Below are positions 3,578 to 17,781 of a stretch of DNA of 21,431 nt, piece by piece. The stretch's first letter is position 1. Each line of letters opens with the position of its first letter. This stretch comes from a virus (Duplodnaviria > Heunggongvirae > Uroviricota > Caudoviricetes): the IMG/VR virus record IMGVR_UViG_2563366923_000001, positions 1-21,431 of that record; one strand, given 5' to 3'. Position numbers and translations under genes: made by a program. The notes under the pieces were generated by a model, which saw only the letters and a program-made list of their open reading frames with translations, did no database searches and was not told the origin of the DNA.

Positions 3578-3806
3578 TTTTCGTCACCTCCTTAACCGAA
3601 TCCGGGAAGCCACCGAGCGACCACTCCATTGACAGCGCATCGTCATCAAGGCCGAGGTCTACCGGTGCGCTGCCGTTCATCCCCGCACCGCGATAGTTTT
3701 CGAGCTTACGGGTCAGTTTTGGTAGCGTGACGGACTTCGCGACGCCCTGATAGCTGTAGCCGTTCAGAAAGACGTTCATTAACTTGAGTTTGCGCGGCAT
3801 TGCCAT
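3510..3806 (-). pseudogene. FII: Truncated tail tube gene FII (N-terminal about 72 codons fused to out-of-frame sequence upstream of U)
   Basis: ORF begins MAMPRKLKLMNVFLNGYSYQG... (tail tube N-terminus) but is only 98 aa against 172 aa in P2; its last about 27 codons read through the U start region in another frame; genes E, E' and T that lie between FII and U in P2 are absent. Confidence 0.7.
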
Positions 3807-3818
3807 CGGTCAGGCTCC

Positions 3819-5009
3819 TTAATTGCTGTTAACCGAGGTGACCAGATTTGCCAGGTATTTATCGGTAATACGCTGGCGCAGGGTCAGGTTTTCGAGAGGA
3901 GGCACCGGGGTATAGTCGTAGTCGATATACAGTTTTCCGGCCTTGAGGGTTTCCGCATCGTTGGATTCTTCGCTGAACCAGCAGGTCGCATCCACGATAT
4001 AGCCGTTTGTTTTCAGTTCACGGAATTTGGCATTGATGCCGTCAACGATGTCGCGAATCAGCGTTGCGGTGATGGGCTTGTCCACCGCCCACATGTGCGC
4101 CTCAGCCATCGTGTCGGCCAGCACCTGCGCGGTGCGGGTGTAGTTTTCAAAGAGGAACAGCGGGTCATCAGAGCAGGTACGGTTACCCCAGAAGCGGAAA
4201 CCGTCGCGGCGAATCAGCGTTGTGACGCCAGACTCGTTCAACAGGTCAGCATCGGTGCCGGACTCCTGCAAATCCCAGAATACAGATGCGCTGATGCCGG
4301 TAACACCGTTTACCCCGACGTTGGACAGCGTTTTATGCCAGCCCTGCTCCTGGTCGATTTTAGCGCGCAGACCCAGCGCACGGGCGGTGGCATACGCGGT
4401 GGCGGTGGTACTGGTGACCGTATCCCATGCGAGGAAATCCGGCCAGATGACCATCAGCTCACGCTGGCTGAAATTCTGGCGGTAGGCTTTCACCTCGGAA
4501 ATGGTCTTACAGCCCCATGCGCTGATATATCCGAAAGCGCGCAGCTTCTGACAGACGGATGCTAGTGCAACAGCCACCTCTTTGGTATCCAGTCCCGGCA
4601 CACCGAGAATACGCGGTTTAACACCGGTTACCGACTCCGCCGCCAGCAGGGCTTTCAGTCCGGTGTACTGACCGTTTTCGTCGGTGGTGCCGATGATATT
4701 GGAAACGGTCTGCGCAAGTTTCGTTTCCTCGTCGTCGCCGGTGCCGTCTTCCACACGCACGACAACGGTGACCGGTTTTGACTGGTCGGCGATGGCCTGC
4801 AACGATGCCGCCAGCGTGCCTTTTTTACCGGCCTTTGCAATTGCGCTCTGCACATTGGTAATCAACACCGGTTTATTGAGGGGGAAGGTTTCCGCATCCG
4901 CATCGCTGGCCGTGCAGACCATGCCGACAATGGCAGTGGATACGGTGGAAATGACGCGGGTGCCGTCGTTAATCTCCAGCACCTGCACGCCATGATGATA
5001 GTCACTCAT
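3819..5009 (-). CDS. FI: P2 gpFI-like tail sheath protein (396 aa)
   Basis: Track ORF 3819..5162 has an internal start MSDYHHGVQVLEINDG... at 5009-5007, preceded by a GGAG RBS; the 396 aa from that Met matches the P2 FI length. Confidence 0.85.
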   Translation of the reverse strand: MSDYHHGVQVLEINDGTRVISTVSTAIVGMVCTASDADAETFPLNKPVLITNVQSAIAKAGKKGTLAASLQAIADQSKPVTVVVRVEDGTGDDEETKLAQTVSNIIGTTDENGQYTGLKALLAAESVTGVKPRILGVPGLDTKEVAVALASVCQKLRAFGYISAWGCKTISEVKAYRQNFSQRELMVIWPDFLAWDTVTSTTATAYATARALGLRAKIDQEQGWHKTLSNVGVNGVTGISASVFWDLQESGTDADLLNESGVTTLIRRDGFRFWGNRTCSDDPLFLFENYTRTAQVLADTMAEAHMWAVDKPITATLIRDIVDGINAKFRELKTNGYIVDATCWFSEESNDAETLKAGKLYIDYDYTPVPPLENLTLRQRITDKYLANLVTSVNSN

Positions 5010-5100
5010 CCGTTTAACTCCGTGGTTAATGGGTGCAACTATTTTCTGTTGTGCAGAGCATGAGACGCTATTTGACCTGGCTGGCCAGTGGATGAAACAA

Positions 5101-5133
5101 CAGATAAAGAAAAGGCGGGCAATCAGCCCGCCA
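5101..5133 (-). terminator. Putative rho-independent terminator on the minus strand (GGCGGGC-TGATT-GCCCGCC followed by TTTTCTTTATCTG)
   Basis: 7-bp GC-rich inverted repeat at 5113-5119/5125-5131 with a T-rich tract downstream on the minus strand; sits between the Z/fun-position cargo and the FI promoter region. Confidence 0.45.
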
Positions 5134-5378
5134 GCCTTGATTTGCACTCTCTCAATTTCCAACTGACAAAATACGTAGCCAAAACGCTATCAAATCTGAC
5201 AGCCTGCTTTGAGCGAGAAACAGACATGGATGGCATACAGTGAAAGTAGCCGCACAATGAGCATCACTGCAATTCTGAATTCAAGCTCTAATACTATTGA
5301 GACCGTATCATACAGTCACTCGCAAAAATTACTTTACCTGAGTGAAAAAATTGATTCCAAGCAAAATGAAAACTTGTA

Positions 5379-5406
5379 ATTCATTATTACATGCATAATA
5401 ATGAAT
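5379..5406. promoter_or_regulatory. AT-rich 11-bp perfect inverted repeat (ATTCATTATTA-CATGCA-TAATAATGAAT) about 100 bp upstream of the OLD-like gene; candidate operator
   Basis: Read directly from the sequence; a TATATAAA -10-like element follows at 5420-5427. Confidence 0.3.
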
Positions 5407-5508
5407 AAAAACTTGAGCTATATAAACCAAAGTTGTTCCGAATAGTCCGTTGAGACATCACTCGAATTATAGGAATACAAGGTTTTATTTTTATAAGGAA
5501 TCGCTCCC

Positions 5509-7773
5509 ATGGGTTTGCAAAGCATAAGAATAAAAAACTTACTATCATTTAATGATGTAATAATAAATTCCCTAGAGGATGTAAATTGCATTGTAGGGAT
5601 GAATAATGTTGGCAAATCCAATCTTATGAAAATATTGAAATATTTTTACGACAAACTTGACGACATAAAAGTAATACCTCCTGATTTTCATTCTAGTTAT
5701 ACTCCTTCAGGGTCAATAACATTGACTTATGATGTAACAAGAATAAAGAGAATTGTAATGAACCCTAATAACAATGGTCGCTTTCACAAGCATATTTATA
5801 ACACTTTATTTAAGCCACAATCATTCATCCGAAAGCCGCAGAAATTCTGTCTTCCTTTCATATCTCCTTTGGGTTTCCAAAGAAAAAGCACTTATAGCAT
5901 TACACTCACAATTTCTAAAGATGACTCCGTAACTTGGTCAATTAGCACACCAAATGCCCGGCATCTAATTAAAACTCTATTTCCTTTTTTCCATATTGAA
6001 ACCAGACACATTGACTTATACGACTGGAATAGCATATGGAAAATGCTCAGCAGTATAAATTCCTTTAATTTCTCTGAAATAAAAAAAGAAGAACTCCTTG
6101 AGTTTTTGAATGAGAAAATATCAACTAAGCGGGGTAGTTACAAGAAGTATATAGAAAGAGTTGAAAATGTAATCCATACTAAACCTTACACCTATAAAGA
6201 TAAAGTCGTTAATTATCTAAAAATAGTTTTAGATGGCGATATTTTCATAAATAAAGGTGAAGAACTACATGTTCAGTCGGATGGCACGAACTCTCACAAA
6301 TATCTTGAAATTATACTTAGCCTATTAATTTCATTAACAAGAACAGAATTTATCAATCCAATTATATATATTGATGAACCTGAAATTGGGCTACATCCAA
6401 AACTTAGCGAGAACTTTATTGAGAACATAAGCCTGACATATAAAAAGTATGATAAAACCCATGAGGAAATTGAGCCTGGAAAATATTCAACACCATATCC
6501 AACTCTTATATTTAGCACTCATTCTCCGAGTTTACTAAAACTCACGCTAAAATCTTTCTTACATAAACAGCAGGTTTTGCATTTTTCAAAAGAACGTGAC
6601 AACTCGACCAAAATTTCAAAATTAAACTCTAAATATAATGACATTAGATTTATAAATATGCTTAGCGATAATGAGGCCCGTCTATTCTTTAGTGAATACA
6701 TTCTATTTGTAGAGGGCGCCACAGAAGTTGAATTGTTTAGAAATTATAATCTGCAAAAGCTGTTTCCAGTACTTAAAAGGTTAGATGTGTATGATTGCGA
6801 TGAAGTAATGTTGAAAAATATAAACCCCAGCTACTCAAATGCAGCCATCCCATTTCTAGTAGTAAAGGATATTGATCAGATTGCCGTTGTTGACTTCGAA
6901 CATGAACAATTTAAATTTAATTCGAAAGGGAAATCAATTATTAATAAAATCATTAAGAGAGATAAACTACACTATTTTTCGACATACCAAAAACCTTTTC
7001 TTAACGCAGCAAAATTTCTTTTAAGCCAAGATGAAAGGAAAGTAACATTCAGTGAAAATGGCCTAAAATTCAGACACTTCAGTATAGGCAGAGTTATAAG
7101 CGCAGTTAATTTTTTATCCTCTAAAGATAATGTTTATTATACTTCTACAACGATAGAAGGCTCATTGATCAATGAATTCTCTTTAGAGACATTCTCTTTA
7201 TGGATCATTGACATAGTAATGAGAAGCTTTAATGTAAATAATAAAAACCCTGTAAAAATGATTAATGCTCTGCTGCAAAAATACGATATTAAAACCCAAT
7301 CAAAACAACTTTTTCCCAAAATACTTTCAAAATGTGAAACAAATCATGACCTACCATTGCGACACATGAGATTATTGAAAATCATTAAAATTAGATATGC
7401 TAAAGAAATAATTGATGAGTTTAAAAAAACCATCCCCGACGTAAAAGACCAAGTTGCTATCTTGCGCCTTATTTTTAGTGGCAAAACAGAAACTCTTGTA
7501 AGTATAGAAATGCATTATAAAATTGATCAAAAACCGATACGGCAAGATATATTGGATTATATCAAAGCATTAAAGTCAGAAAATTTCTCTTTTATGAGTT
7601 CTTACATAGGAAAGACTTCTGGATGGGTTACAAGCTTCATTGATTTTAGCCTTAATCATTATTCAGCCCTAGATAAAGAAAATGTCGAAAAAAAATTCCG
7701 CTTGGCTTTTCCTGAAATTTCGCATATCATCGATCATGCTTCTTCTTCGATAGAAGCTGGAGGGCTCAAATGA
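5509..7773 (+). CDS. OLD-family nuclease-like protein: N-terminal ABC-type ATPase, central TOPRIM domain, about 300-aa unassigned C-terminal extension (754 aa)
   Basis: Walker A GMNNVGKSN near the N-terminus; Walker B/D-loop IIYIDEPEIGLHP; H-loop FSTHSP; TOPRIM glutamate motif LFVEGATEVELF and DxD-like VVKDIDQIA; AAGGAA RBS before the ATG; strongly AT-rich relative to the prophage backbone. Confidence 0.75.
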   Translation: MGLQSIRIKNLLSFNDVIINSLEDVNCIVGMNNVGKSNLMKILKYFYDKLDDIKVIPPDFHSSYTPSGSITLTYDVTRIKRIVMNPNNNGRFHKHIYNTLFKPQSFIRKPQKFCLPFISPLGFQRKSTYSITLTISKDDSVTWSISTPNARHLIKTLFPFFHIETRHIDLYDWNSIWKMLSSINSFNFSEIKKEELLEFLNEKISTKRGSYKKYIERVENVIHTKPYTYKDKVVNYLKIVLDGDIFINKGEELHVQSDGTNSHKYLEIILSLLISLTRTEFINPIIYIDEPEIGLHPKLSENFIENISLTYKKYDKTHEEIEPGKYSTPYPTLIFSTHSPSLLKLTLKSFLHKQQVLHFSKERDNSTKISKLNSKYNDIRFINMLSDNEARLFFSEYILFVEGATEVELFRNYNLQKLFPVLKRLDVYDCDEVMLKNINPSYSNAAIPFLVVKDIDQIAVVDFEHEQFKFNSKGKSIINKIIKRDKLHYFSTYQKPFLNAAKFLLSQDERKVTFSENGLKFRHFSIGRVISAVNFLSSKDNVYYTSTTIEGSLINEFSLETFSLWIIDIVMRSFNVNNKNPVKMINALLQKYDIKTQSKQLFPKILSKCETNHDLPLRHMRLLKIIKIRYAKEIIDEFKKTIPDVKDQVAILRLIFSGKTETLVSIEMHYKIDQKPIRQDILDYIKALKSENFSFMSSYIGKTSGWVTSFIDFSLNHYSALDKENVEKKFRLAFPEISHIIDHASSSIEAGGLK

Positions 7774-7893
7774 GCTGACGCATGCCGTCACTTGCTCCAG
7801 CAAACACTAGCTCGGATTGTCTTGCGTCCGCTAAGCCGCTTTAAGCCTCACGGGGTGTAAAGATGTTATTGGTATCGAAGAGGAAGCTTTTAC

Positions 7894-8991
7894 ATGAAAC
7901 ATAAAATTAATAAAATTAACAATGATTTTTATAAAAATTTTTATCTAAGAGAAACATTCTCCGATGATATTATTATGACTCACGGAGTCCCTGAGATTTC
8001 CAATGACGATTATAAAAGCATTTCATTAAAGAATAGATTATGTTTCACTATAAGAAAAAGCTCCCCGCATAAAAAAATACAAGAAAGACTTATAAAAAAT
8101 TTCCTAGTAAAAGTTCCTCTTAGCTCACCTGCAATTGCCTATCGTAAAAAATTAAACTATTTGAATTTTCTAGAACCTCATATCCATGGTGAGAACTTTT
8201 GTCGAATTGACTTATGTAATTTTTTTCATAACATAAACTATAACTTTGCAAGGGAGTGTTTCAAATCCTACTTTGAAGATGAATATCTGGTAAATAAAAA
8301 AATCAAAGTTATTGATGCATTTTTAAATAGTTTATCTATTGAGATTGTAGTCAACAATAAAAAGAAAAAAATATTTCCAATGGGATTCGCCACATCACCT
8401 TTCATATCCAATATAATTTTCAGAAAGTTAGATATTTTAATTAAAAGTTTGTGTGACAAAAGAAGCATCATTTACACTCGTTATGCTGATGATATGCTTT
8501 TTTCGAGCTCCGGGAAAGACAAACTTCTTGGAAGTGAACATTTTGACAACGAGATATCAACTATTGTCAATACGGCAGGACTGTCCCTCAACAAACATAA
8601 AAAAATATTTAAGAAAGGCATAATCTCACTAAACGGCTATGTAATAGAAAATAAAAATGGAGGGGGAGAGAGAGGGAGTATAAGAATATCTAATGGAAAA
8701 ATGTATTTAATACGGAAAGCACTAGATAAATTTAAAAAGGGATATTCTAAAGAGCATATTTGCAAAAAAGTATTTTCTGTTAAATCACCAACTGTCAAGT
8801 ATAATAACAATGCAGATCAGTTTGTAACGGATTTTTATAATTCACAATTCTCTAATAAGTTAGCTGGTTATCGTTCATATTTAATATCATTAGTAAAATT
8901 TAATGATAAATTCAGATGTTTTCACGAAAACGAAATCACCAAATACTCAGTGATTATTGATGAAATTTCTAATGCACTGCTAAAACCCTAG
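7894..8991 (+). CDS. Reverse transcriptase, retron/Abi-like (365 aa)
   Basis: RT motifs in order: RIDLCNFFHNI (motif 2 region), FPMGFATSPFISNIIF (motif 4, compare retron PQGxxxSPxLSN), YTRYADD (catalytic YxDD at 8482-8493), LSLNKHKK and ISLNGYVI (retron-like motif 6/7 region, but no canonical VTG); GAGGAAG RBS; AT-rich; no maturase or endonuclease domain. Confidence 0.8.
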   Translation: MKHKINKINNDFYKNFYLRETFSDDIIMTHGVPEISNDDYKSISLKNRLCFTIRKSSPHKKIQERLIKNFLVKVPLSSPAIAYRKKLNYLNFLEPHIHGENFCRIDLCNFFHNINYNFARECFKSYFEDEYLVNKKIKVIDAFLNSLSIEIVVNNKKKKIFPMGFATSPFISNIIFRKLDILIKSLCDKRSIIYTRYADDMLFSSSGKDKLLGSEHFDNEISTIVNTAGLSLNKHKKIFKKGIISLNGYVIENKNGGGERGSIRISNGKMYLIRKALDKFKKGYSKEHICKKVFSVKSPTVKYNNNADQFVTDFYNSQFSNKLAGYRSYLISLVKFNDKFRCFHENEITKYSVIIDEISNALLKP

Positions 8992-9413
8992 CCTTAGAAA
9001 GTTAATGTTTTGGCCCTAAAGCAAGGGCCTTAATAGTAAAAATAGTTACCAGCATAAGTATTCCTTCAACTAATCACACAAATTAACGTTAGCAACGTTC
9101 CCTTTTTACACCGTCTGAGCACTAAGCTGTCGGTCATTCTGGTCTACCATACTATTATACGTAACATCCAAGAGTGTTCCTGCAAACGGTCGTAGAAAAT
9201 GCGGGCTTCGCCATTTTCTGGCCGACGCCGGTCTCGTCGAGTTCTTCTGACTGTTCAAGTGCAAATGCGCCTGTAGGTATCCCTACAAAAGAAACCATCA
9301 ACTTTTAGATAGTATCTGGCACTCCAACTCCCGCTGTTGACTCGGAGCGGACTGTCAGATTAGGCTTTACTCTGTACCATAGATACGTTAGCTCACTCCA
9401 GAGATCATACAAC

Positions 9414-9941
9414 TTATTGCGGCATGTCCGGCCATTCAGGATTTGAAGGGTCCACACGACTGACCAGAACGCTGTAGCGTTCCCATGCATCCAGTCGACT
9501 GCGCTCCTCACCTGTTGCCATATTCAGCCTGACAGCGCGCTCCAGCGGCAAAATTACGGATTCAGCTTCGGAAAGCAAAGCTGCCTTATGTAATTCCGCT
9601 AGTTTCTGCTGTTCGTCTGCCGTATAAATCCGCTTAATCACGGCACCATCCTTAAACATCCATTTACCTGAGTCATCAGCACGCCGGTTGGCAGTAATAT
9701 CAGGAACCTCAACGACGCTAAAACCTTCAGGATTAAGCGTTGAAGCATCTCTGGTGATGGCGACAATAATATTATTTTCATCGTAAACAATCTTTATTGT
9801 GTCTGGCTGAAAATTACTTACTTCCTCATACCAGTTTTTTCCGTCTTCGGACCATAACCAGATAACATCAAAATTCTTTGTTAGCTGATATTGCTCTTTT
9901 GTTTTTGGATTACCTGACTTAATGTTCTTTAAATGCTGCAT
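9414..9941 (-). CDS. G: P2 gpG-like tail fibre assembly protein (175 aa)
   Basis: 175-aa ORF matching P2 G in length, immediately downstream of the tail-fibre gene remnant. Confidence 0.8.
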
Positions 9942-9944
9942 TAC

Positions 9945-11030
9945 TTACACCTGCGCAACGTTATACCATGTGCCATTGATGTATTTTTGTATCGGCCTGA
10001 AGATGGCCTCATCATCGCCATCTACTTCACCAATGATTCTTAATCCGGTAATCGTGTGTCCGGCTTTTTCATAACGACCACCTCGCGCCATCAATTGAAC
10101 AACTCGCGTACCCAGGCGAACATCTTTCACATAGCGGGAATCAAAATTCCCCCAGTTGCTGGGTTGCATCTGACCGTTAACAGCAAATATTACCGAGTTA
10201 TCTGTATTTCGCTGGCTATAGAAATGCCATCCGGACTCATCGCCTAACTCTGCAACCACTGGACGGTTGGAAGCACCCCATAAATTAAAGGTAATATTCT
10301 TCGTGGATGTGTTAGAGCTGGATAGCGAGAACTTTTTACTATCCCCTGCCTGAATATTTTTAAAAGCAATAGCCACTCCATTCTGAAAACGGAATACACG
10401 CTGACTGTTAGCATAAACATCAAGAATACCGTCTCCATTCTGTTTAAATCCGGTATCATTATCACCAAGGACAATAGAGCTACCACCTAGTGCATTCGTC
10501 GTACCAACTCCAAGACAGCCATTAATGACGGCATTAACAAGAATATTTAGTGCATCCCATTTCAGCGTCATCAGGTCTTTTGTTGTGGTACTCTGGCGGC
10601 TTCTCCATTTGAAATATTCATTGCCGTTATCCCCCGTTTCAAACCACATGTATGAATCAGCGTCACCATCGGCATCATTTTTAAATCCAATCTTCGCCCA
10701 GTCAGTATTTCGAATCCAGGCAAGGATTGAGTCGTTTTCAAAAGTAATCCCGCCGGACAAGGTATCGCCATTCTTTTGCACCGCGTTCCTGGCCCTGTTT
10801 ACCGTTTCCTGCAAACCGAGGTATTCGATAACGGCAGCAATGGTCGCTTTAGCCAGAATATCCCGCCCGACTTTTGTCAGGGTTGCCAAACTGGCAACAT
10901 CATTCCCCGTAAAATACGGAAAGCTGTCTGCCGCAGTAGCAAGCCCCGCCAGCGCCGTCAGAGTGGCATCTTTCGGTTGCTTACCCGCAAGCGCATTAGT
11001 CATGGAGGTAGCAAAATTCGGGTCTCGGCC
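9945..11030 (-). pseudogene. H: Tail fibre gene H remnant (C-terminal half, about 360 codons) lacking its N-terminal half
   Basis: Reading frame continues upstream of Met 11003 as ...DPNFATSMTNALAGKQPK..., which I recognise as an internal H region; upstream of about 11027 the frame decodes nonsense that overlaps J in another frame. P2 H is 669 aa. Confidence 0.72.
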
Positions 11031-11860
11031 AGCGGTGCAGTCAGTTCGACACGCTGCACGCCTTCCACATGCAAAGCGGCATAAATGGCAGACAGACGGA
11101 TGTCGCGCCCCAGCCGGTGCTGTGCCGTGATGTACGCTTCCAGTTTTTTCACGGCAGCAGCGCGTATGGGTTCGCTTTCGGGACCAGGGTAAAGGTAAAG
11201 CGTGGCGTTTATCTGGTATTCAACGATGGCGGCAGACTGCACGGTCACGCGGTCGGCCACCGGCCTGACGTCCTCGCCATTAAGGGCGTTACGCACCACC
11301 GCCAGCAGGTCTTCGGATGCGACACCGTTATTTTCACGTGACAGCACAGAGATGGTGACGCAGGCCGGAGACGGACTGGTTACAGAAATATCCGCGACAC
11401 GCCCGTCGGCACTGCGACCATGATACTGATAGGCCCCCACCGACCCGGCGACGCTTAAACCTTCAAACGCCTGCTGAATACGCAGACGATAATCCGTGTC
11501 AGATTCCATCACTGCCGGTGTCGGCGGGATGGTCGAATCATCTTCCAGGGTGATAATCAGGCGCGTGGTGTTGTAATTGGCACCAATCACATCAAGGTCA
11601 TTACCGGCAGCACAGGCCAGCATCACCGCCCGTGCGGCCTCATTCACACGCTGACGCCAGATAAGCTCACGATAAGCATTTTCCTCCAGCAGTTTGACGA
11701 GAGGCTCAGATTCCAGCGTCAGGGTACGGGCGACCGCCTCCTGCTGGTCTTCCGGGTAAAGGGAAATCAGTGTCGCCTTGCGTTCGGCAAGAATGGTTTC
11801 AAAGTCCAGCTCCTCAACCACATCCGGTGCGGGTAGCTGGTTCAGGTCGATAATCGGCAT
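11000..11860 (-). pseudogene. J: Baseplate gene J with altered/truncated C-terminus (286 aa against 302 in P2); gene I absent
   Basis: ORF starts MPIIDLNQLPAPDVVEELDF... (J N-terminus); the last about 8 codons (ETRILLPP) read into H-derived sequence; the stop overlaps the H-frame Met (ATGA). Confidence 0.62.
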
Positions 11861-12212: not shown

Positions 12213-12565
12213 AGAGGTCCCCCTGTTGTGCCGCCGCTGTCGCCGGGGTGTTTATGGGTATGAAGTACCTTACCGTTTGATGAGAGTTCACCGCCGGTGT
12301 GTTCAATGTTGCCGCGCATCGTCCCGCCCTTCTGCACTTCCAGCGTGCCGGTAATCAGCCTGTTGGTGCAGACCACCTCCGGTGTGTCCAGGGTGACGCG
12401 GGTTGATGCTTTCACCATGACCACCGGCACCGTGGCGGTAACAGAATCAGAAGCCGTCACGCTGGCCGTTTTAATTCCGCTTACCGTAAGTGCACTGGTT
12501 TCGGGTTCATACTCAATCATCGCTGCCGAGACCCGCATCATGTGGCGCTGTGCGGGACTCGTCAT
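12209..12565 (-). pseudogene. In-frame M'-V' fusion remnant: first about 16 codons of terminase small subunit gene M joined to the C-terminal about 100 codons of baseplate spike gene V
   Basis: ORF begins MTSPAQRHMMRVSAAM (recalled as the gpM N-terminus) then continues IEYEPETSALTVSGIKTASV... (V C-terminal region); 118 aa against 211 aa for V; sits directly after the N stop, where M starts in P2. Confidence 0.62.
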
Positions 12566-12568
12566 CGG

Positions 12569-13060
12569 TTACGCTCCCGGCTCTGCGGTCGCTTTAGCCG
12601 GTGTGGAGAAATCACCGACCTTAATTTTTTCCACCAGACAACCGGCGGCGTAGTCCTCCACCACGTAATCAATGTTCATTGACTCGTAGTTCTCCACGCG
12701 ATCGAGTTTCGGGTTTTCCTCAATCACGCGGCGATGGCTGTCATCCATGTAGTAGATGGACAGGTTTTCCAGCTTCGTGATGAGCATCGCATCAGCCGGG
12801 AAGTACGGGACGCGTACCGCTGGCAGGTTGCCGATGCGTTTCTGGCTGATGATGACGTCAGCGGCCAGCATTTCGCTGTTGTCCTGCTCCTTGTTGACGA
12901 TGGGAAAATACTTGTCCGCCAGTAGCTGACGTCCCACAATCACCACAAGGTCAGGGTCTTCCTGATACCACGGCTCAATCAGGTTGTTGGTCGCATCCAT
13001 CACCAGTGCATCAAGGCTGGCATAATCACCGCCCTTATCCGTTCTGGTCGGGTGAACTGT
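12569..13060 (-). pseudogene. N: Major capsid gene N remnant (C-terminal about 157 codons only)
   Basis: Frame reads ...KGGDYASLDALMMDATNNLIEPWYQEDPDLVVIVGRQ... to the stop at 12569; an upstream in-frame stop at 13061-13063 and no N-terminal about 200 codons; P2 N is 357 aa. Confidence 0.68.
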
Positions 13061-14051
13061 TCAACCGGGGACGCGCCAGCGCCGCCGAACGCGTGGAAAT
13101 CGACGTCAGTCATAACGCCCTTGCCGGTGGGCTTCTCTGTGCGGACGGCCAGTGGCGGCAGATTGTCACCATTGAGGACGCCCTGAAAGGTGGCTGCACG
13201 CTGTTCGACATTGAGCAGCTTAAACGCGAAAACAGCGCCGACGATTTTAAAAACCTGTTCATGTGTGAATTTGTTGACGACAAGGCGTCGGTATTTCCCA
13301 GCAGGATTTCAGCCGCTTTGTGCTGGATTTTCTGGTGTTCGGCAATGCGTTTCTGGAAAAGCGTTACAGCACCACCGGTAAGGTCATCAGACTGGAAACC
13401 TCACCGGCAAAATATACCCGCCGTGGCGTGGAAGAGGATGTTTACTGGTGGGTGCCGTCCTTCAACGAGCCGACACCTTTCGCGCCCGGCTCCGTGTTTC
13501 ACCTGCTGGAGCCGGATATTAATCAGGAGCTGTACGGCCTGCCGGAATATCTCAGCGCCCTTAACTCTGCCTGGCTGAATGAGTCGGCCACTCTGTTCCG
13601 CCGCAAGTATTACGAAAACGGCGCACATGCCGGATACATCATGTACGTCACGGATGCCGTGCAGGATCGCAACGATATCGAAATGCTTCGCGAAAACATG
13701 GTGAAGTCGAAAGGCCGCAACAACTTTAAAAACCTGTTTCTCTATGCCCCGCAGGGAAAAGCCGACGGCATTAAAATTATCCCGCTCAGTGAAGTGGCGA
13801 CGAAGGACGATTTTTTTAATATCAAAAAAGCCAGTGCCGCAGACCTGCTGGACGCGCACCGCATCCCCTTTCAGTTGATGGGCGGCAAGCCGGAGAACGT
13901 CGGGTCGCTGGGCGATATTGAGAAAGTAGCAAAGGTCTTTGTCCGCAATGAGCTTATCCCGTTACAGGACAGGATCCGCGAGATAAACGGCTGGCTCGGT
14001 CAGGAGGTCATCCGATTTAAAAACTACTCACTGGACACTGACAACGGCTGA
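13040..14051 (+). pseudogene. Q: Portal gene Q remnant: no start codon, reading frame switches near 13280-13300
   Basis: C-terminal 243 codons (13320..14051, frame 3) are an intact portal-like sequence; the N-terminal part is in frame 1 (track ORF 13006..13578); frame 3 has a stop at 13275-13277; frame 1 upstream of about 13040 is antisense to N; position next to cos fits P2 Q. Confidence 0.62.
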
Positions 14052-14239: not shown

Positions 14240-14331
14240 CGCCCGCTTCATGGGGCGGTTTTAATGCAGTTACATAGATACTATGGATCCGCACCAGTCC
14301 TGACCGCACGCAGCCTGAACGGACATCCCCG

Positions 14332-14365
14332 ACGCATGCAAAAACATTCACTTGTTGCATGCAAC
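14332..14365. promoter_or_regulatory. Tandem GCATGCAA palindromic motifs (CGCATGCAAA at 14333-14342; perfect palindrome TTGCATGCAA at 14355-14364) upstream of the 313-aa cargo gene; candidate operator/promoter
   Basis: Read directly from the sequence; the two sites are 23 bp apart; a related ATGCATGCAA occurs at 16698-16707 upstream of the divergent cargo operon. Confidence 0.35.
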
Positions 14366-14477
14366 GGCTTATTTAATGACAAATCAACTTAAATTTACAA
14401 AATCCACAGGTATGGATACTTTGCGAACATGATAGGCTTACGAGAATTATCGTGCCTGTTTTTGAACGGAGAAAGTT

Positions 14478-15419
14478 ATGCAAGGTGAAGTTGACGAACA
14501 GCAACCAAATGAGATTATTTCGGAGTTTGGATACTATCCAGTAGAAGTTAACATTGAGACTGAACAATTTTCTTTGCGTACTTTACCCGGTCTTATTGAG
14601 AAAGTGGAACGTATTAACAATGATAAAAACGTTGTTAATGGTTGGATATACCCTGGGAATCGAAAGGTATATAACCTTAATGGTGACACATGCACAATGC
14701 CTTATAGTTACCGAGTATTCGGCATGCCCAAAACGCACACACTAAAATTAAAAAACACATCCTCGTTAGAAACTCTCAACTTTGTTGTGTGGTGCCTCTC
14801 TTTTTTCAAGGGTATAAGATTGACAACCACTGACGCTGGTTTTCTTGATGCAACCACTATCAAGCCCACTAAGTTAACCGACTTTATTCTCGTTGGATGC
14901 TCTGAAAAAGAAGTAATAGAGCTAGCACTTAACTATATAAAAGACAAACAAAAAGATGATCGCTCCATTAAAAGAATAGCTGCGGTGATACACTCCCTAT
15001 TCCTGTCACATAACCCACTATACCTTTCCTTTGAGAAATTCCAGTATCTTTATATGGCTCTTGATTGCTGTTTTGCTATAGCATGGGATGAAAGGGATAA
15101 AGTCATTAAAGAGAAAAAACCATCTCATCAAAATAGAGTATATTGGACGTGCGAAAATTACGGTGTAAAAATCCCGTCATGGGCAACAGATGAATGTAAT
15201 GTTTCAGTTATACGCAATGATAATTTTCATGAAGCCATTTTTAATGGGCAACCGCTTGGTTTCTCTAGTATCAATGATTGTCAATATGGTAGCGATATAT
15301 TGCTACAAATGCAGGCTCTGGTATGTCGTCTACTAGCGGCAATACTCTCTGTAAATGATCGTAAATATATCGCATCTACAATCAGCTCGATAGAGTACCA
15401 TTCATTAAAATTAACTTAA
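14478..15419 (+). CDS. Hypothetical protein (313 aa), AT-rich cargo at the tin/old position; no recognisable motifs
   Basis: Long ORF with a GGAG RBS 8 nt before the ATG; composition contrasts with the prophage backbone; first gene after cos. Confidence 0.6.
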   Translation: MQGEVDEQQPNEIISEFGYYPVEVNIETEQFSLRTLPGLIEKVERINNDKNVVNGWIYPGNRKVYNLNGDTCTMPYSYRVFGMPKTHTLKLKNTSSLETLNFVVWCLSFFKGIRLTTTDAGFLDATTIKPTKLTDFILVGCSEKEVIELALNYIKDKQKDDRSIKRIAAVIHSLFLSHNPLYLSFEKFQYLYMALDCCFAIAWDERDKVIKEKKPSHQNRVYWTCENYGVKIPSWATDECNVSVIRNDNFHEAIFNGQPLGFSSINDCQYGSDILLQMQALVCRLLAAILSVNDRKYIASTISSIEYHSLKLT

Positions 15420-15491
15420 TGCTAACGCCTCACTTCGCTCGTTGTTCAACCCCGCCAGCCTGAAAACAAGTTTCACGACTGGCGGCGTTCT

Positions 15492-15644
15492 CTATCGTCT
15501 GCGTGGTGGTGGCGCAACTCTGGACTGACCGATATAGTTAAACCGCCCGTAATTATCCCGGACTATTTCGGCACACCCGACCAGCTCGTCAGGCGTCAGA
15601 TTTTCGTTGACCATAATCTGCTGTAAACGGTGAACAATGGCCAT
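15492..15644 (-). CDS. Possible small ORF (50 aa, MAIVHRLQQIMVNENLTPDELVGCAEIVRDNYGRF...), function unknown
   Basis: ATG-to-stop ORF below the track size cut-off, with an in-frame upstream stop and a weak AGG-type RBS; backbone-like GC content; could be a remnant of a phage gene. Confidence 0.2.
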   Translation of the reverse strand: MAIVHRLQQIMVNENLTPDELVGCAEIVRDNYGRFNYIGQSRVAPPPRRR

Positions 15645-15738
15645 CAACCTGACACTTTTGGTGTTATATGTGGTATCTCACATGAGATTACTGACCAAGG
15701 TGCATCTTGGTTGACTCATTTCATATCCATCCACACCA

Positions 15739-16419
15739 CTACATCTTTATTGCATATTTATTAAAAGACGCCCAGTTCAATAAAAAAACATTATTCATAT
15801 ACCATTCAATATGATTTTTATTTTTAGATTGACTGTCAAGTAGCACACAAACATCAACCTGTTTATCAATCAATTTTGCAATATAAACCACAAACTCAAC
15901 ACTCGAATATCTCTTTGTGCCTAGCAAATATAATATTTCATCTGACAAATAATTAGACTCATGTGAAAAGACATTATCATTTAACAAAATCAACCCGCCA
16001 ATCGAGTCATTTAAATCCAAAACATCCTTTGTTGCATTTATTTGCTTATTAGCTTCCTTAACTATCTTTGTTTTAATATTTTCATAAGCAAAGTTCATTA
16101 TATCATTTCTAAATCGCTTTGAGTCTGGGTGTCTTTTTATCAACTCTTCTAAATGAATAGCACCATGCCAGTTTTTTGCAAGCCAACTATCAGTTTTAAC
16201 CAACTCATTCAGTTTATCATTGACATTCTTGACCCTGTCAGAAAAAAGACTTTTCATCTCCAAAATTATCTTTTTATTATCAATAAGATAATCTGCCATC
16301 TTGCGATTCTGACCATCCTTCATCCGGAACTTATGATGAATATCATCAATAGAAATCCCTTTTTCATGCTCAACAATGAATCTCTTAACATTGTTTTCTA
16401 ATTCGCTGTATTGTTTCAT
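15739..16419 (-). CDS. Hypothetical protein (226 aa), AT-rich cargo; no recognisable motifs
   Basis: ORF with a strong GGGGGAAAG RBS; 27 nt downstream of the DUF2158 gene on the same strand (operon-like). Confidence 0.6.
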   Translation of the reverse strand: MKQYSELENNVKRFIVEHEKGISIDDIHHKFRMKDGQNRKMADYLIDNKKIILEMKSLFSDRVKNVNDKLNELVKTDSWLAKNWHGAIHLEELIKRHPDSKRFRNDIMNFAYENIKTKIVKEANKQINATKDVLDLNDSIGGLILLNDNVFSHESNYLSDEILYLLGTKRYSSVEFVVYIAKLIDKQVDVCVLLDSQSKNKNHIEWYMNNVFLLNWASFNKYAIKM

Positions 16420-16446
16420 ACTTTCCCCCGTGAATTTTATTATGAT

Positions 16447-16638
16447 TCACTTACGTGGACGACACAGCATACCACTTTTACTCTCTGCTATTTCCAGTAA
16501 ATCAATGGAGAATGACTCCTCGTGCAAAACTCCTTCTTTATCATGCCAAATACATTTCGCATGAGTTTCAGTAGAGTCAGATACAGTCATTTTAAATCCA
16601 CCGCTTTTCAAACAAACAACATCTGCAGGCTTTAACAT
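16447..16638 (-). CDS. DUF2158 / YodC-like small protein (63 aa)
   Basis: Internal start MLKPADVVCLKSGGFKMTVSD... with GGAG 7 nt upstream; the DVVxLKSGGxxMTV signature resembles YodC-family small proteins; the track ORF 16447..16722 over-extends the N-terminus. Confidence 0.55.
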   Translation of the reverse strand: MLKPADVVCLKSGGFKMTVSDSTETHAKCIWHDKEGVLHEESFSIDLLEIAESKSGMLCRPRK

Positions 16639-16764
16639 TTTTGTCTCCAACATTTTTAAGTAATGCATTATAACATAATGATATTGACGTAGATTTAATG
16701 CATGCAACCATATAAAAAACAATCAATTACAGTCAAAACTACTTATACTGTATAGATGAGATCC

Positions 16765-17781
16765 TTACTCAAATTGATGCCAGAATCCCGACCACTCATC
16801 AGCGACCGGATACGTGAATTTTTTCCCGTCATAATTTACGGTCGCGCCACGCGCCAGCGCCTCAAGCTCCCATCGCTGCGGCCTGATACCGTTCTGAGCA
16901 AGGTCAACGCGGATACGGGTGATTTGCAATCGTTCAGACCGGGTCAGTCTGGCCGATGGCGCTATTTCATGTGGTTTTAACGGGCTTCCGTTTCTTTGCT
17001 GACGATTTGGTGTTTTCAGGCCGTGTTTTAATGCACCCCTGAGCGTCCTCACGACCTCCGGGTCATTCCATTCGATAACACCGTCATCAACCAGATTTAG
17101 CACTGCTGCGGCGTGTTCAGAAGGTGTGGGAGCCGGTAACGAAGTATCACCACCGGTGAGCTTTCCACAGTTATTGACAGGACTCCGAGGCGCGGCGATG
17201 CCGCTTTTTAACGTCAAAGGCTCAACGACCGGCACTTTCGGCACAATGCGCCAGTCCGTCGTTCTGGTGATATGAATATGACGCGCGCCGAGATGCGGCG
17301 CGTAAATGCCGACCACTCTCTCGACCTCTTCCTCGTACTCGTTAACGTCATCCGACGGGCTACGGGCAACCCTGACAGTCTGACAATCGCGCGGAACATT
17401 TGCCCCACCCTGCGCGCTGATATACAACGCAAAATCACCACTGTCTGCGGCAGCGCGTGCAGCCTCGACGCGTTCGTCAAACTCATCAGCAATGCTGACG
17501 CCGCGAGGCAATTTGCGTAGTTCACGGTAAGCCCCCATTGTCGGCAGACCAACCGTTTTAAATTGCGGAATGCGCCACGTTGACGCCCATGCGGTAACAG
17601 CAGCAGCTGTGTCTTTCAGCGGCCTGCCGGTATCATTATCGAGCTGACCATCCAGTGCATAGCCGTCGATGTTTTTTGAGATGTATTTCGCGATATATCC
17701 CGCAGCACCGCCCCGGTTAAGATGTTTTGTTGTTCCTGAATAAAATCTACGTTGTCCGGCATTATCAGCTCCTTTTATCGT
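16765..17781 (-). pseudogene. A: Replication initiator gene A remnant (C-terminal about 335 codons, with the YIAKYISK active-site region, but no N-terminal about 430 codons and no start codon)
   Basis: Frame is open from 17781 to the stop at 16765 and reads ...KHLNRGGAAGYIAKYISKNIDGYALDGQLDNDTGRPLKDTAAAVTAWASTWRIPQFKTVGLPTMGAYRELRKL...; the rolling-circle Rep Y-x-x-K-Y motif is present; no in-frame start before Met 17538; P2 A is 761 aa. Confidence 0.68.

Follow-up and report, generated by a model that had tools for sequence, protein, structure and literature searches.

The sequence considered here (the window) is a 21,431-nucleotide (nt) stretch, positions 1 to 21,431 of IMG/VR virus record IMGVR_UViG_2563366923_000001 (Caudoviricetes), which spans trhP (yegQ), a P2-like prophage and yegR. 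Within the prophage, between the gpFI and gpG genes, there are two co-directional open reading frames (ORFs) coding for an OLD-family nuclease and a reverse transcriptase (RT), and a predicted non-coding RNA (ncRNA) of the msr-msd type is located between them. We interpret these as a type I-B2 retron of the Retron-Eco8 family that is complete in its three components and is carried on a 3.6-kb AT-rich moron cassette; the cassette fills the Z/fun slot of a P2-like Escherichia coli prophage inserted at trhP(yegQ)/yegR. We put the probability of this reading as a whole at about 0.9. The genes, the cassette and its flanks are as follows.

5509-7773, plus strand: OLD effector ORF, 754 aa; Class 3A OLD-family nuclease with ABC ATPase, dimerisation insert and expanded TOPRIM
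7894-8991, plus strand: retron RT ORF, 365 aa; RT clade of type I-B2
5470-9047, plus strand: extent of the mobile retron cassette, being the DNA common to the Serratia and Pectobacterium relatives; P2 Z-region sequence lies outside it
3819-5009, minus strand: P2 gpFI tail sheath gene, left Z/fun flank, outside the retron; Pfam Phage_sheath_1/1C (9.8e-34 for Phage_sheath_1)
9414-9941, minus strand: P2 gpG tail fibre assembly gene, right Z/fun flank, outside the retron; Pfam Caudo_TAP (2.2e-33)

The coordinates, lengths, shared orientation and AT-richness of the two genes had been given correctly in an initial annotation of this DNA, and agree exactly with the ORF list and with the GC content, which is 0.28-0.36 over 5500-9000 but 0.53-0.59 for the phage genes lying towards FI. 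The cassette occupies the P2 Z/fun variable slot between gpFI and gpG, also as first annotated, and this placement is established by the Pfam identities of the FI and G flanks, by the Yersinia P2-like phage L-413C, in which the same junction sequences flank another ORF between annotated gpFI and gpG genes, and by the G-proximal flank, which in sequence matches what the deposited 'Z-region' of P2-EC48 has as its 'left inverted repeat'. The RefSeq annotation of the corresponding prophage in E. coli UPEC85 names the FI product 'phage tail sheath protein' and agrees also for gpG. A megablast search of the phage collection found the cassette in no phage record, with matches to the Z-region flanks only.

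The OLD effector and the reverse transcriptase

The system used for comparison throughout is Retron-Eco8 of E. coli 200499, represented by PDB entries 23or, 9lbq, 9p4j and others; its locus was retrieved through the RT sequence P0017, which is one residue off the PDB chain. Profile hidden Markov model searches of both proteins, as recommended with the initial annotation, gave retron I-B and OLD matches far beyond chance. The OLD protein matches the PADLOC ATPase-Toprim_I-B model over its full length (E 1.2e-210, 699 bits), scores 654.8 bits against the NCBIfam equivalog retron_eff_Eco8 ('retron Eco8 family effector endonuclease', 250-bit cutoff), and aligns over residues 1-750 with residues 1-743 of the Retron Eco8 OLD nuclease (PDB 23or_B, E 2.6e-227), to which it is 50% identical over 737 aligned positions. 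Together with the RT matches described below, these PADLOC, NCBIfam and PDB results bear out the original assignment of the pair to an OLD plus RT defence module in the type I-B, Eco8-like neighbourhood.

All of the motifs quoted in that assignment are present in the translations, including, in the OLD protein, the Walker A motif G30-MNNVGKSN-38, the Walker B motif IIYIDEPEIGLHP, FSTHSP, the TOPRIM motif LFVEGATEVELF and D454-I-D456. The roles of the Eco8 OLD residues have been defined by mutagenesis and structure (PMC12887533), and in the alignment every ATPase and TOPRIM residue found essential by mutagenesis in Eco8 is kept in the window OLD, with the following correspondences.

K36 and S37 of the window OLD: Walker A; the same residues are essential in Eco8
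D258 of the window OLD: trans-acting D254 of Eco8; H338 corresponds to Eco8 H334
E402 and E406 of the window OLD: TOPRIM E398 and E402 of Eco8
D454-I-D456 of the window OLD: DxD motif; E550 corresponds to Eco8 E544
K659 and K702 of the window OLD: K653 and K693 of Eco8
F92 and H95: residues that hold the Eco8 msDNA (multicopy single-stranded DNA) 'lasso', kept in the window OLD

The RT carries YADD at residues 197-200 and the sequence FPMGFATSPFISNIIF, the motif 4 noted initially. Its best PADLOC match is to the RT_I-B model PDLC02938 (E 2.7e-106, 353 bits), a second RT_I-B model (PDLC02937) scores 92 bits, and the best 25 of the 44 PADLOC RT matches are all to retron RT models. Among structures, the Retron Eco8 RT (PDB 23or_A) is matched over residues 6-363 with an E value of 6.5e-88, and the Ec86, Ec83 and Ec78 RTs come next and are distant; identity to the Eco8 RT is ~41%. 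Window residues D106, F111, P162-M-G164, Y197-ADD-200 and L246-N-G248 correspond to D107, F112, PMG, YADD and ING of Eco8, and are invariant or nearly so among 31 aligned family RTs. In Eco8 these positions are all needed for defence, and 'ING' is catalytically essential (PMC13402713). The lack of the canonical retron VTG motif was correctly observed at the outset, the window RT reading ISLNGYVI, but it does not set this RT apart, because the same position in Eco8 reads ISINGYVI and corresponds to its essential ING. More broadly, S(L/I)NG is present in 25 of the 31 family RTs and TLNG in one more, so that (I/L)NG is found in 26 of 31, with the glycine invariant.

The order of the genes is likewise a property of the family. 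We assembled a set of 80 genome loci encoding relatives of the RT, drawn from Gammaproteobacteria, Campylobacterota and Firmicutes, and in 76 of them the RT is directly preceded by an OLD homologue in the same orientation; the remaining four have too little upstream DNA to judge. The initial observation that the effector precedes the RT is thus accurate, but this is not a departure from Eco8, which has the same order of OLD, ncRNA and RT with all three parts present, and an OLD-RT spacing of 119 nt compared with 120 nt in the window; the close relatives examined, which come from Providencia, Proteus and Morganella, likewise have a spacing of 120 nt. An effector upstream of the RT is the described layout of type I-B2 retrons with Class 3A OLD effectors (PMC10568477), the type to which Retron-Eco8 belongs (PMC12916289). 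The TOPRIM motif IV of the window OLD (E402-G-A-T-E406, or EGATE) conforms to EGxxE, a signature of type I-B2 (Mestre 2020, PMC7736814). Type I-B1 retrons also combine an RT with an OLD-family ATPase-TOPRIM effector, but there the effector (Class 3B OLD) follows the RT, motif IV is EDxxL, and the RT is of clade 1 (PMC7736814); type I-B1 was ruled out for the window by the upstream effector, by EGATE, and by the 92 bits for PDLC02937 as against 353 for PDLC02938.

We considered whether the nuclease could be a stand-alone Class 1 OLD protein similar to P2 Old, or a Gabija-like nuclease, lying beside an unrelated RT by chance. P2 phages classically carry old, P2 Old (Class 1) and Gabija GajA (Class 2) share the combination of ABC ATPase and TOPRIM, and the window protein does have weaker matches to the Old, GajA, AriA and AbiL(i) models of PADLOC. 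These amount to just 38-62 bits (56 for P2 Old and no more than 52 for GajA) whereas the retron I-B effector model gives 699 bits, and the cutoff of the Eco8-effector equivalog is passed. Neither P2 Old nor GajA has an RT or ncRNA partner, and P2 Old is prophage-borne exclusion cargo whose gene occupies the other variable locus, between A and Q. Gabija was rejected on the GajA scores and on the neighbouring gene, which is an RT, there being no GajB-type UvrD-like helicase adjacent; PARIS (AriA), AbiL and Class 1 OLD were rejected on the 38-62 bits. Linkage of OLD, ncRNA and RT in 76 of the 80 loci, across Proteobacteria and Firmicutes, also argues against a chance neighbour, as does the location of the first ncRNA repeat and the branching guanosine (see below) inside the OLD coding sequence, and purified Eco8 OLD is inactive on its own (PMC12887533). 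We regard a chance pairing as hardly credible.

The msr-msd ncRNA

The initial annotation described a two-gene module, and in this respect it fell short. A 15-nt inverted repeat (a1/a2) that had been overlooked spans the 120-nt OLD-RT spacer, and its sequence, fold and covariation indicate that an msr-msd ncRNA is present at 7738-7887 as the third retron component. Its predicted parts are listed here.

7738-7752, plus strand: inverted repeat a1, GCTTCTTCTTCGATA, part of the OLD coding sequence (codons for A-S-S-S-I)
7753, plus strand: predicted branching (priming) guanosine, directly 3' of a1
7753-7810, plus strand: msr, a 7-bp stem GCUGGAG/CUCCAGC around two small hairpins, then AAACAC-UAG
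7802-7871, plus strand: msd template; the predicted msDNA is its 70-nt reverse complement, CAATAACATCTTTACACCCCGTGAGGCTTAAAGCGGCTTAGCGGACGCAAGACAATCCGAGCTAGTGTTT, with boundaries transferred from Eco8
7873-7887, plus strand: inverted repeat a2, TATCGAAGAGGAAGC, which includes GAGGA, the Shine-Dalgarno sequence for the RT (RT ATG at 7894)
7725-7730, plus strand: -10-like hexamer TATCAT in the 3'-terminal part of OLD, a possible ncRNA/RT promoter; given by the promoter scan as TTGGCT-17-TATCAT, 7702-7730

The a1 and a2 repeats are 93% complementary. In alignment, a1 and the G that follows it are identical in the window, in Eco8 and in five closer relatives, a2 is nearly identical to that of Eco8, and G7753 is invariant in all of the aligned loci. 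At the sequence level it is equivalent to Eco8 rG18, mutation of which (rG18C) abolishes defence (PMC12887533). The msr has the same organization as in Eco8, with a closing stem and two hairpins, and the closing stem differs in a compensatory manner (GCUGGAG/CUCCAGC in the window and GCUGAGG/CCUCAG in Eco8); in the first of the two hairpins the window is 6 nt shorter than Eco8. When the rule used to set the boundaries was checked on the Eco8 locus, the branching G fell at position 18 and the published 75-nt msdDNA, dC1...dT75, was exactly reproduced, with dC1-dT10 mapping to CAAGACCAAT and dA15/dT30 as published (PMC12887533).

The structure is supported by covariation. RNAalifold applied to seven sequences predicts 48 pairs, comprising the a1/a2 stem, the msr closing stem, two msr hairpins and two msd hairpins, and a covariance model built from this alignment gives a full-length, same-strand match just upstream of the RT in 27 loci, 20 of which were not used in building it and in which RT identity falls to ~35%. 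In the window there is a single match, at 7736-7889. Across the 27 loci, 91% of cells are standard pairs compared with 40-46% when the partners are slid by 1-3 columns, counts that are somewhat inflated in favour of the structure because the alignment is fitted to the model, with a margin over the slid controls that is still large. Double-sided changes occur in 42 of the 48 pairs, and none of 500 shuffles reaches the observed values; the a1/a2 stem alone has such changes in 11 of 15 pairs, and helices 2-4 are 87-100% paired with double-sided changes at every pair.

The absence of a long msd hairpin had been counted as an anomaly, and it is true that none is evident, but the Eco8 msDNA itself consists of a 75-nt msdDNA with two short stem-loops as seen by cryo-electron microscopy, an arrangement described as unique among solved retrons (PMC12887533). 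The window msd is predicted to form the same two elements, a first stem-loop (DSLa, which in Eco8 is the 'lasso' that grips OLD helices through F92 and H95) in which the CTTTA...TAAAG base is kept and a second short stem-loop, and the fold of the predicted msDNA into two short stem-loops lies within 0.4 kcal/mol of its DNA minimum-free-energy fold.

The alternative that the locus is a distinct, non-retron RT plus OLD system of the DRT/Abi kind, producing cDNA or protein-primed DNA independently of any msr-msd and cooperating with OLD in a new way, can be judged at this point. The RTs of DRT/Abi systems belong to the UG/Abi clade, have no msr-msd and usually carry extra C-terminal domains. In its favour are a gene order unlike that of most textbook retrons, the lack of VTG and of a long msd hairpin, and an Rfam scan of 4800-9800 (E up to 1) in which no curated family matched at threshold, a null that covers curated families at threshold only. 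All three of the apparent differences occur in Eco8 itself (PMC12887533, PMC13402713), and the window aligns with Eco8 end to end, so that the initial formula of a divergent retron or a distinct RT-associated OLD system gives way to one in which they are traits of the family. The msr-msd, with its a1/a2 repeats and branching G, is alignable to the experimentally resolved ncRNA of Eco8. DRT/Abi RTs were rejected as candidates since none is among the best 25 of the 44 PADLOC matches, which are all retron models, and the best non-retron RT matches score low on NCBIfam (38.6 bits for Drt2, where the cutoff is 390, and 37.4 for group II intron RT, where it is 300). We consider a non-retron system very improbable, and the type I-B2 retron is the reading that we develop below.

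The ncRNA overlaps the OLD gene and the Shine-Dalgarno sequence of the RT. The final 36 nt of OLD (7738-7773) belong at the same time to the ncRNA, supplying a1, the branching G and the first part of the msr, and the 3' end of OLD is under a dual coding and RNA constraint; the C-terminal ASSSIEA is common to the window and Eco8 OLD proteins, and the underlying DNA is identical. At the other end, a2 contains the GAGGA Shine-Dalgarno sequence, and a1/a2 pairing could therefore occlude it and limit RT translation. The distance from TATCAT to a1 is the same as that from TATAAT to a1 in Eco8, where the 5' end of the ncRNA, counted back from rG18 (PMC12887533), falls 6 nt downstream of TATAAT. This suggests that an internal promoter in the OLD gene may give rise to an ncRNA-RT transcript; a scan of the region for promoters and terminators returned site counts no higher than chance, which weakens the promoter assignment.

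Proposed function and points at issue

We view the locus as an ordinary member of a well-described anti-phage family, and a defensive role for this lineage is proposed by homology to Eco8. On the same basis, the ncRNA would fold through the a1/a2 stem, and the RT would prime at the 2'-OH of G7753 and copy from 7871 to 7802 to yield an msDNA of ~70 nt with two short stem-loops. RT-msDNA units would dock on a tetramer of OLD, and the resulting 4:4:4 complex would be autoinhibited; from it, a phage protein that binds msDNA (for Eco8 this is SSB, the phage's binding protein for single-stranded DNA) would pull the msDNA, releasing the TOPRIM nuclease. The freed nuclease would then degrade phage and host DNA, leading to an abortive infection that protects the lysogen population and with it the prophage. 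The 4:4:4 RT:msDNA:OLD complex, activation by phage SSB, and abortive infection are known for Eco8 only (PMC13158370, PMC12887533, PMC13402713).

Several observations weigh against a complete and functional Eco8-family retron, in addition to the inflation of the pairing counts and the negative promoter scan noted above. At -4.5 to -4.9 kcal/mol the hairpins of the predicted msDNA have little stability, a weakness that Eco8 shares, and the upper stem of DSLa pairs less well than that of Eco8. Eco8 OLD Y483 aligns with T492 of the window, in a region that aligns poorly. Eco8 RT F51, a beta-hairpin aromatic residue that stacks on the termination nucleotide and stops reverse transcription, aligns with C50 of the window; the next residue, F51, is aromatic, such that the window has C-F, close relatives F-F and Eco8 F-Y. 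With only ~41% RT and 50% OLD identity, the specificity of the trigger may differ from that of Eco8. Finally, UPEC85 carries an intact 35-kb prophage at this site, and by comparison the window prophage has six internal deletions of ~3.2, 1.4, 4.5, 2.6, 0.9 and 1.8 kb in essential phage genes. Lost in them are T/E/E'/FII, portions of H-I-J, the stretch from V to N, N-O-P, P/Q, and the 5' portion of A together with small upstream ORFs.

The deletions raise the question of whether the cassette is a decaying and non-functional remnant, either silenced or with an RT impaired by the F50C difference. Beyond the loss of essential phage genes and the C50 at a position where relatives have the aromatic equivalent of Eco8 F51, the locus is AT-rich, the cassette is rare, being found in just two of 5426 complete E. 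coli genomes (UPEC85 at 100% and STK77-E at 99.6%), and decay does occur in this lineage, as illustrated by a split OLD gene in a Providencia relative. Set against this, both ORFs are full length with all of their catalytic residues, the ncRNA pairing is perfect bar one G-U, and the cassette is untouched by all of the deletions. The intact prophage of UPEC85 has the same cassette at 100% identity, C50 included, and the 131 member sequences in the 90%-identity cluster of the RT argue for maintenance. We therefore think a dead remnant improbable, if less so than the other alternatives, and prefer an intact retron.

Several of the deletion junctions have overlaps of 2-10 nt, and the collapsed arrangement was found in no complete E. 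coli genome; the deletions could represent real prophage decay that spared both cargo loci, which are intact in the window prophage, or an assembly artefact. The junctions are these.

3593-3598: deletion junction
11025-11034: deletion junction
12517-12523: deletion junction
13036-13037: deletion junction
13294-13299: deletion junction
17728-17729: deletion junction

The predicted msDNA of 70 rather than 75 nt, the weaker DSLa and an RT that does not have the F51 stop residue of Eco8 prompt a tentative and rather doubtful extension, namely that this lineage might sense another trigger or terminate its msDNA differently; its position would also mark Z/fun as a second prophage defence hotspot, one not systematically mined. 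Even if true, this would still be a variant form of a mechanism already known. Thorough descriptions of the family exist, covering both architecture and mechanism, and our understanding of retrons is unchanged by this locus. As a natural Eco8 variant with near-identical a1/a2, it could help to work out which features of the msDNA determine specificity for SSB or the trigger, and its predicted 70-nt msd is a further compact scaffold for retron-editing work.

Carriers, distribution and other cargo

The window RT lies in a tight subclade (71-99% RT identity) with members in Serratia (Serratia marcescens), Pectobacterium, Proteus, Morganella, Providencia and Edwardsiella, and all other relatives, Eco8 included, are no more than 46% identical; for the close relatives in these six genera the RT identity is 71-90%. 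Within the subclade the cassette DNA is 76-83% identical over ~3.5 kb, and the ncRNA is near-identical. A blastn search with 5010-9413 gives the limits of the shared DNA, with one relative (L001) 83% identical over 5470-9047 and a second (L002) 81% identical over 5484-9047; matches to the others span 5486/5509 to 8970/8990.

These cassettes are found in a variety of settings. In Proteus (L085/L086) the cassette is beside a lambda-like tail-tip gene J, in Morganella (L087) beside a phage integrase/excisionase, and in Providencia (L082) downstream of a primase (Zn-ribbon/Toprim/DUF927) such as satellites or islands typically have, each being 76-80% identical in DNA sequence to the window. A tblastn search with the window FI, G, H and U proteins gave no match in any other related locus, and within the subclade placement in P2 Z/fun is limited to the E. 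coli copies; the short Eco8 contig also differs from the window in this regard, having been recovered without a homologue of P2 FI, G, H or U. The cassette is mobile, and in E. coli its landing site has been the P2 Z/fun slot. In the Providencia relative with the split effector (L083, 1789-4055; Logan contig SRR31591577_30), OLD is divided into segments of 215 and 522 aa and the RT is intact, and this effector is probably pseudogenised.

In the RefSeq annotation of UPEC85 the identical effector is named 'retron Eco8 family effector endonuclease', the RT bears the generic label 'reverse transcriptase domain-containing protein', and the ncRNA is not annotated. A literature search for WP_001547470 and WP_023304001 found no paper naming either accession. 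The present description therefore supplies a full three-part annotation for a locus only partly annotated in RefSeq, and its practical value is modest.

The Z-region flanks at 5163-5230 and 9293-9413 are common to 378 complete E. coli genomes with other cargo between them, including pairs of SIR2 family and PIN domain genes, genes with DUF4145 and an assortment of hypothetical proteins. Given this varied cargo between the same flanks, P2-like prophages seem to have a second defence-type hotspot in the FI-G slot, and the retron would be another case of abortive-infection cargo in Z/fun; a literature search for Z/fun as a defence hotspot found nothing beyond one unrelated paper.

The A-Q hotspot of P2 has been analysed as a reservoir of defence systems (Rousset et al. 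2022). The window prophage has a second AT-rich cargo segment in this gpA-gpQ (old/tin) hotspot, at 14302-16783 (GC 0.33-0.39), with two ORFs.

14478-15419, plus strand: second-cargo ORF, 313 aa
15739-16419, minus strand: second-cargo ORF, 226 aa

Neither ORF has a Pfam or PADLOC match, and the only PHROGs matched are of unknown function (phrog_5937 and phrog_20483); the RefSeq names for these genes are hypothetical, DUF2158 and 'meiotically up-regulated 80 protein'. They are candidates for an uncharacterised defence pair. The segment is at least 99% identical in 27 complete E. coli genomes, and UPEC85 has an HNH endonuclease gene in its place at gpA-gpQ.

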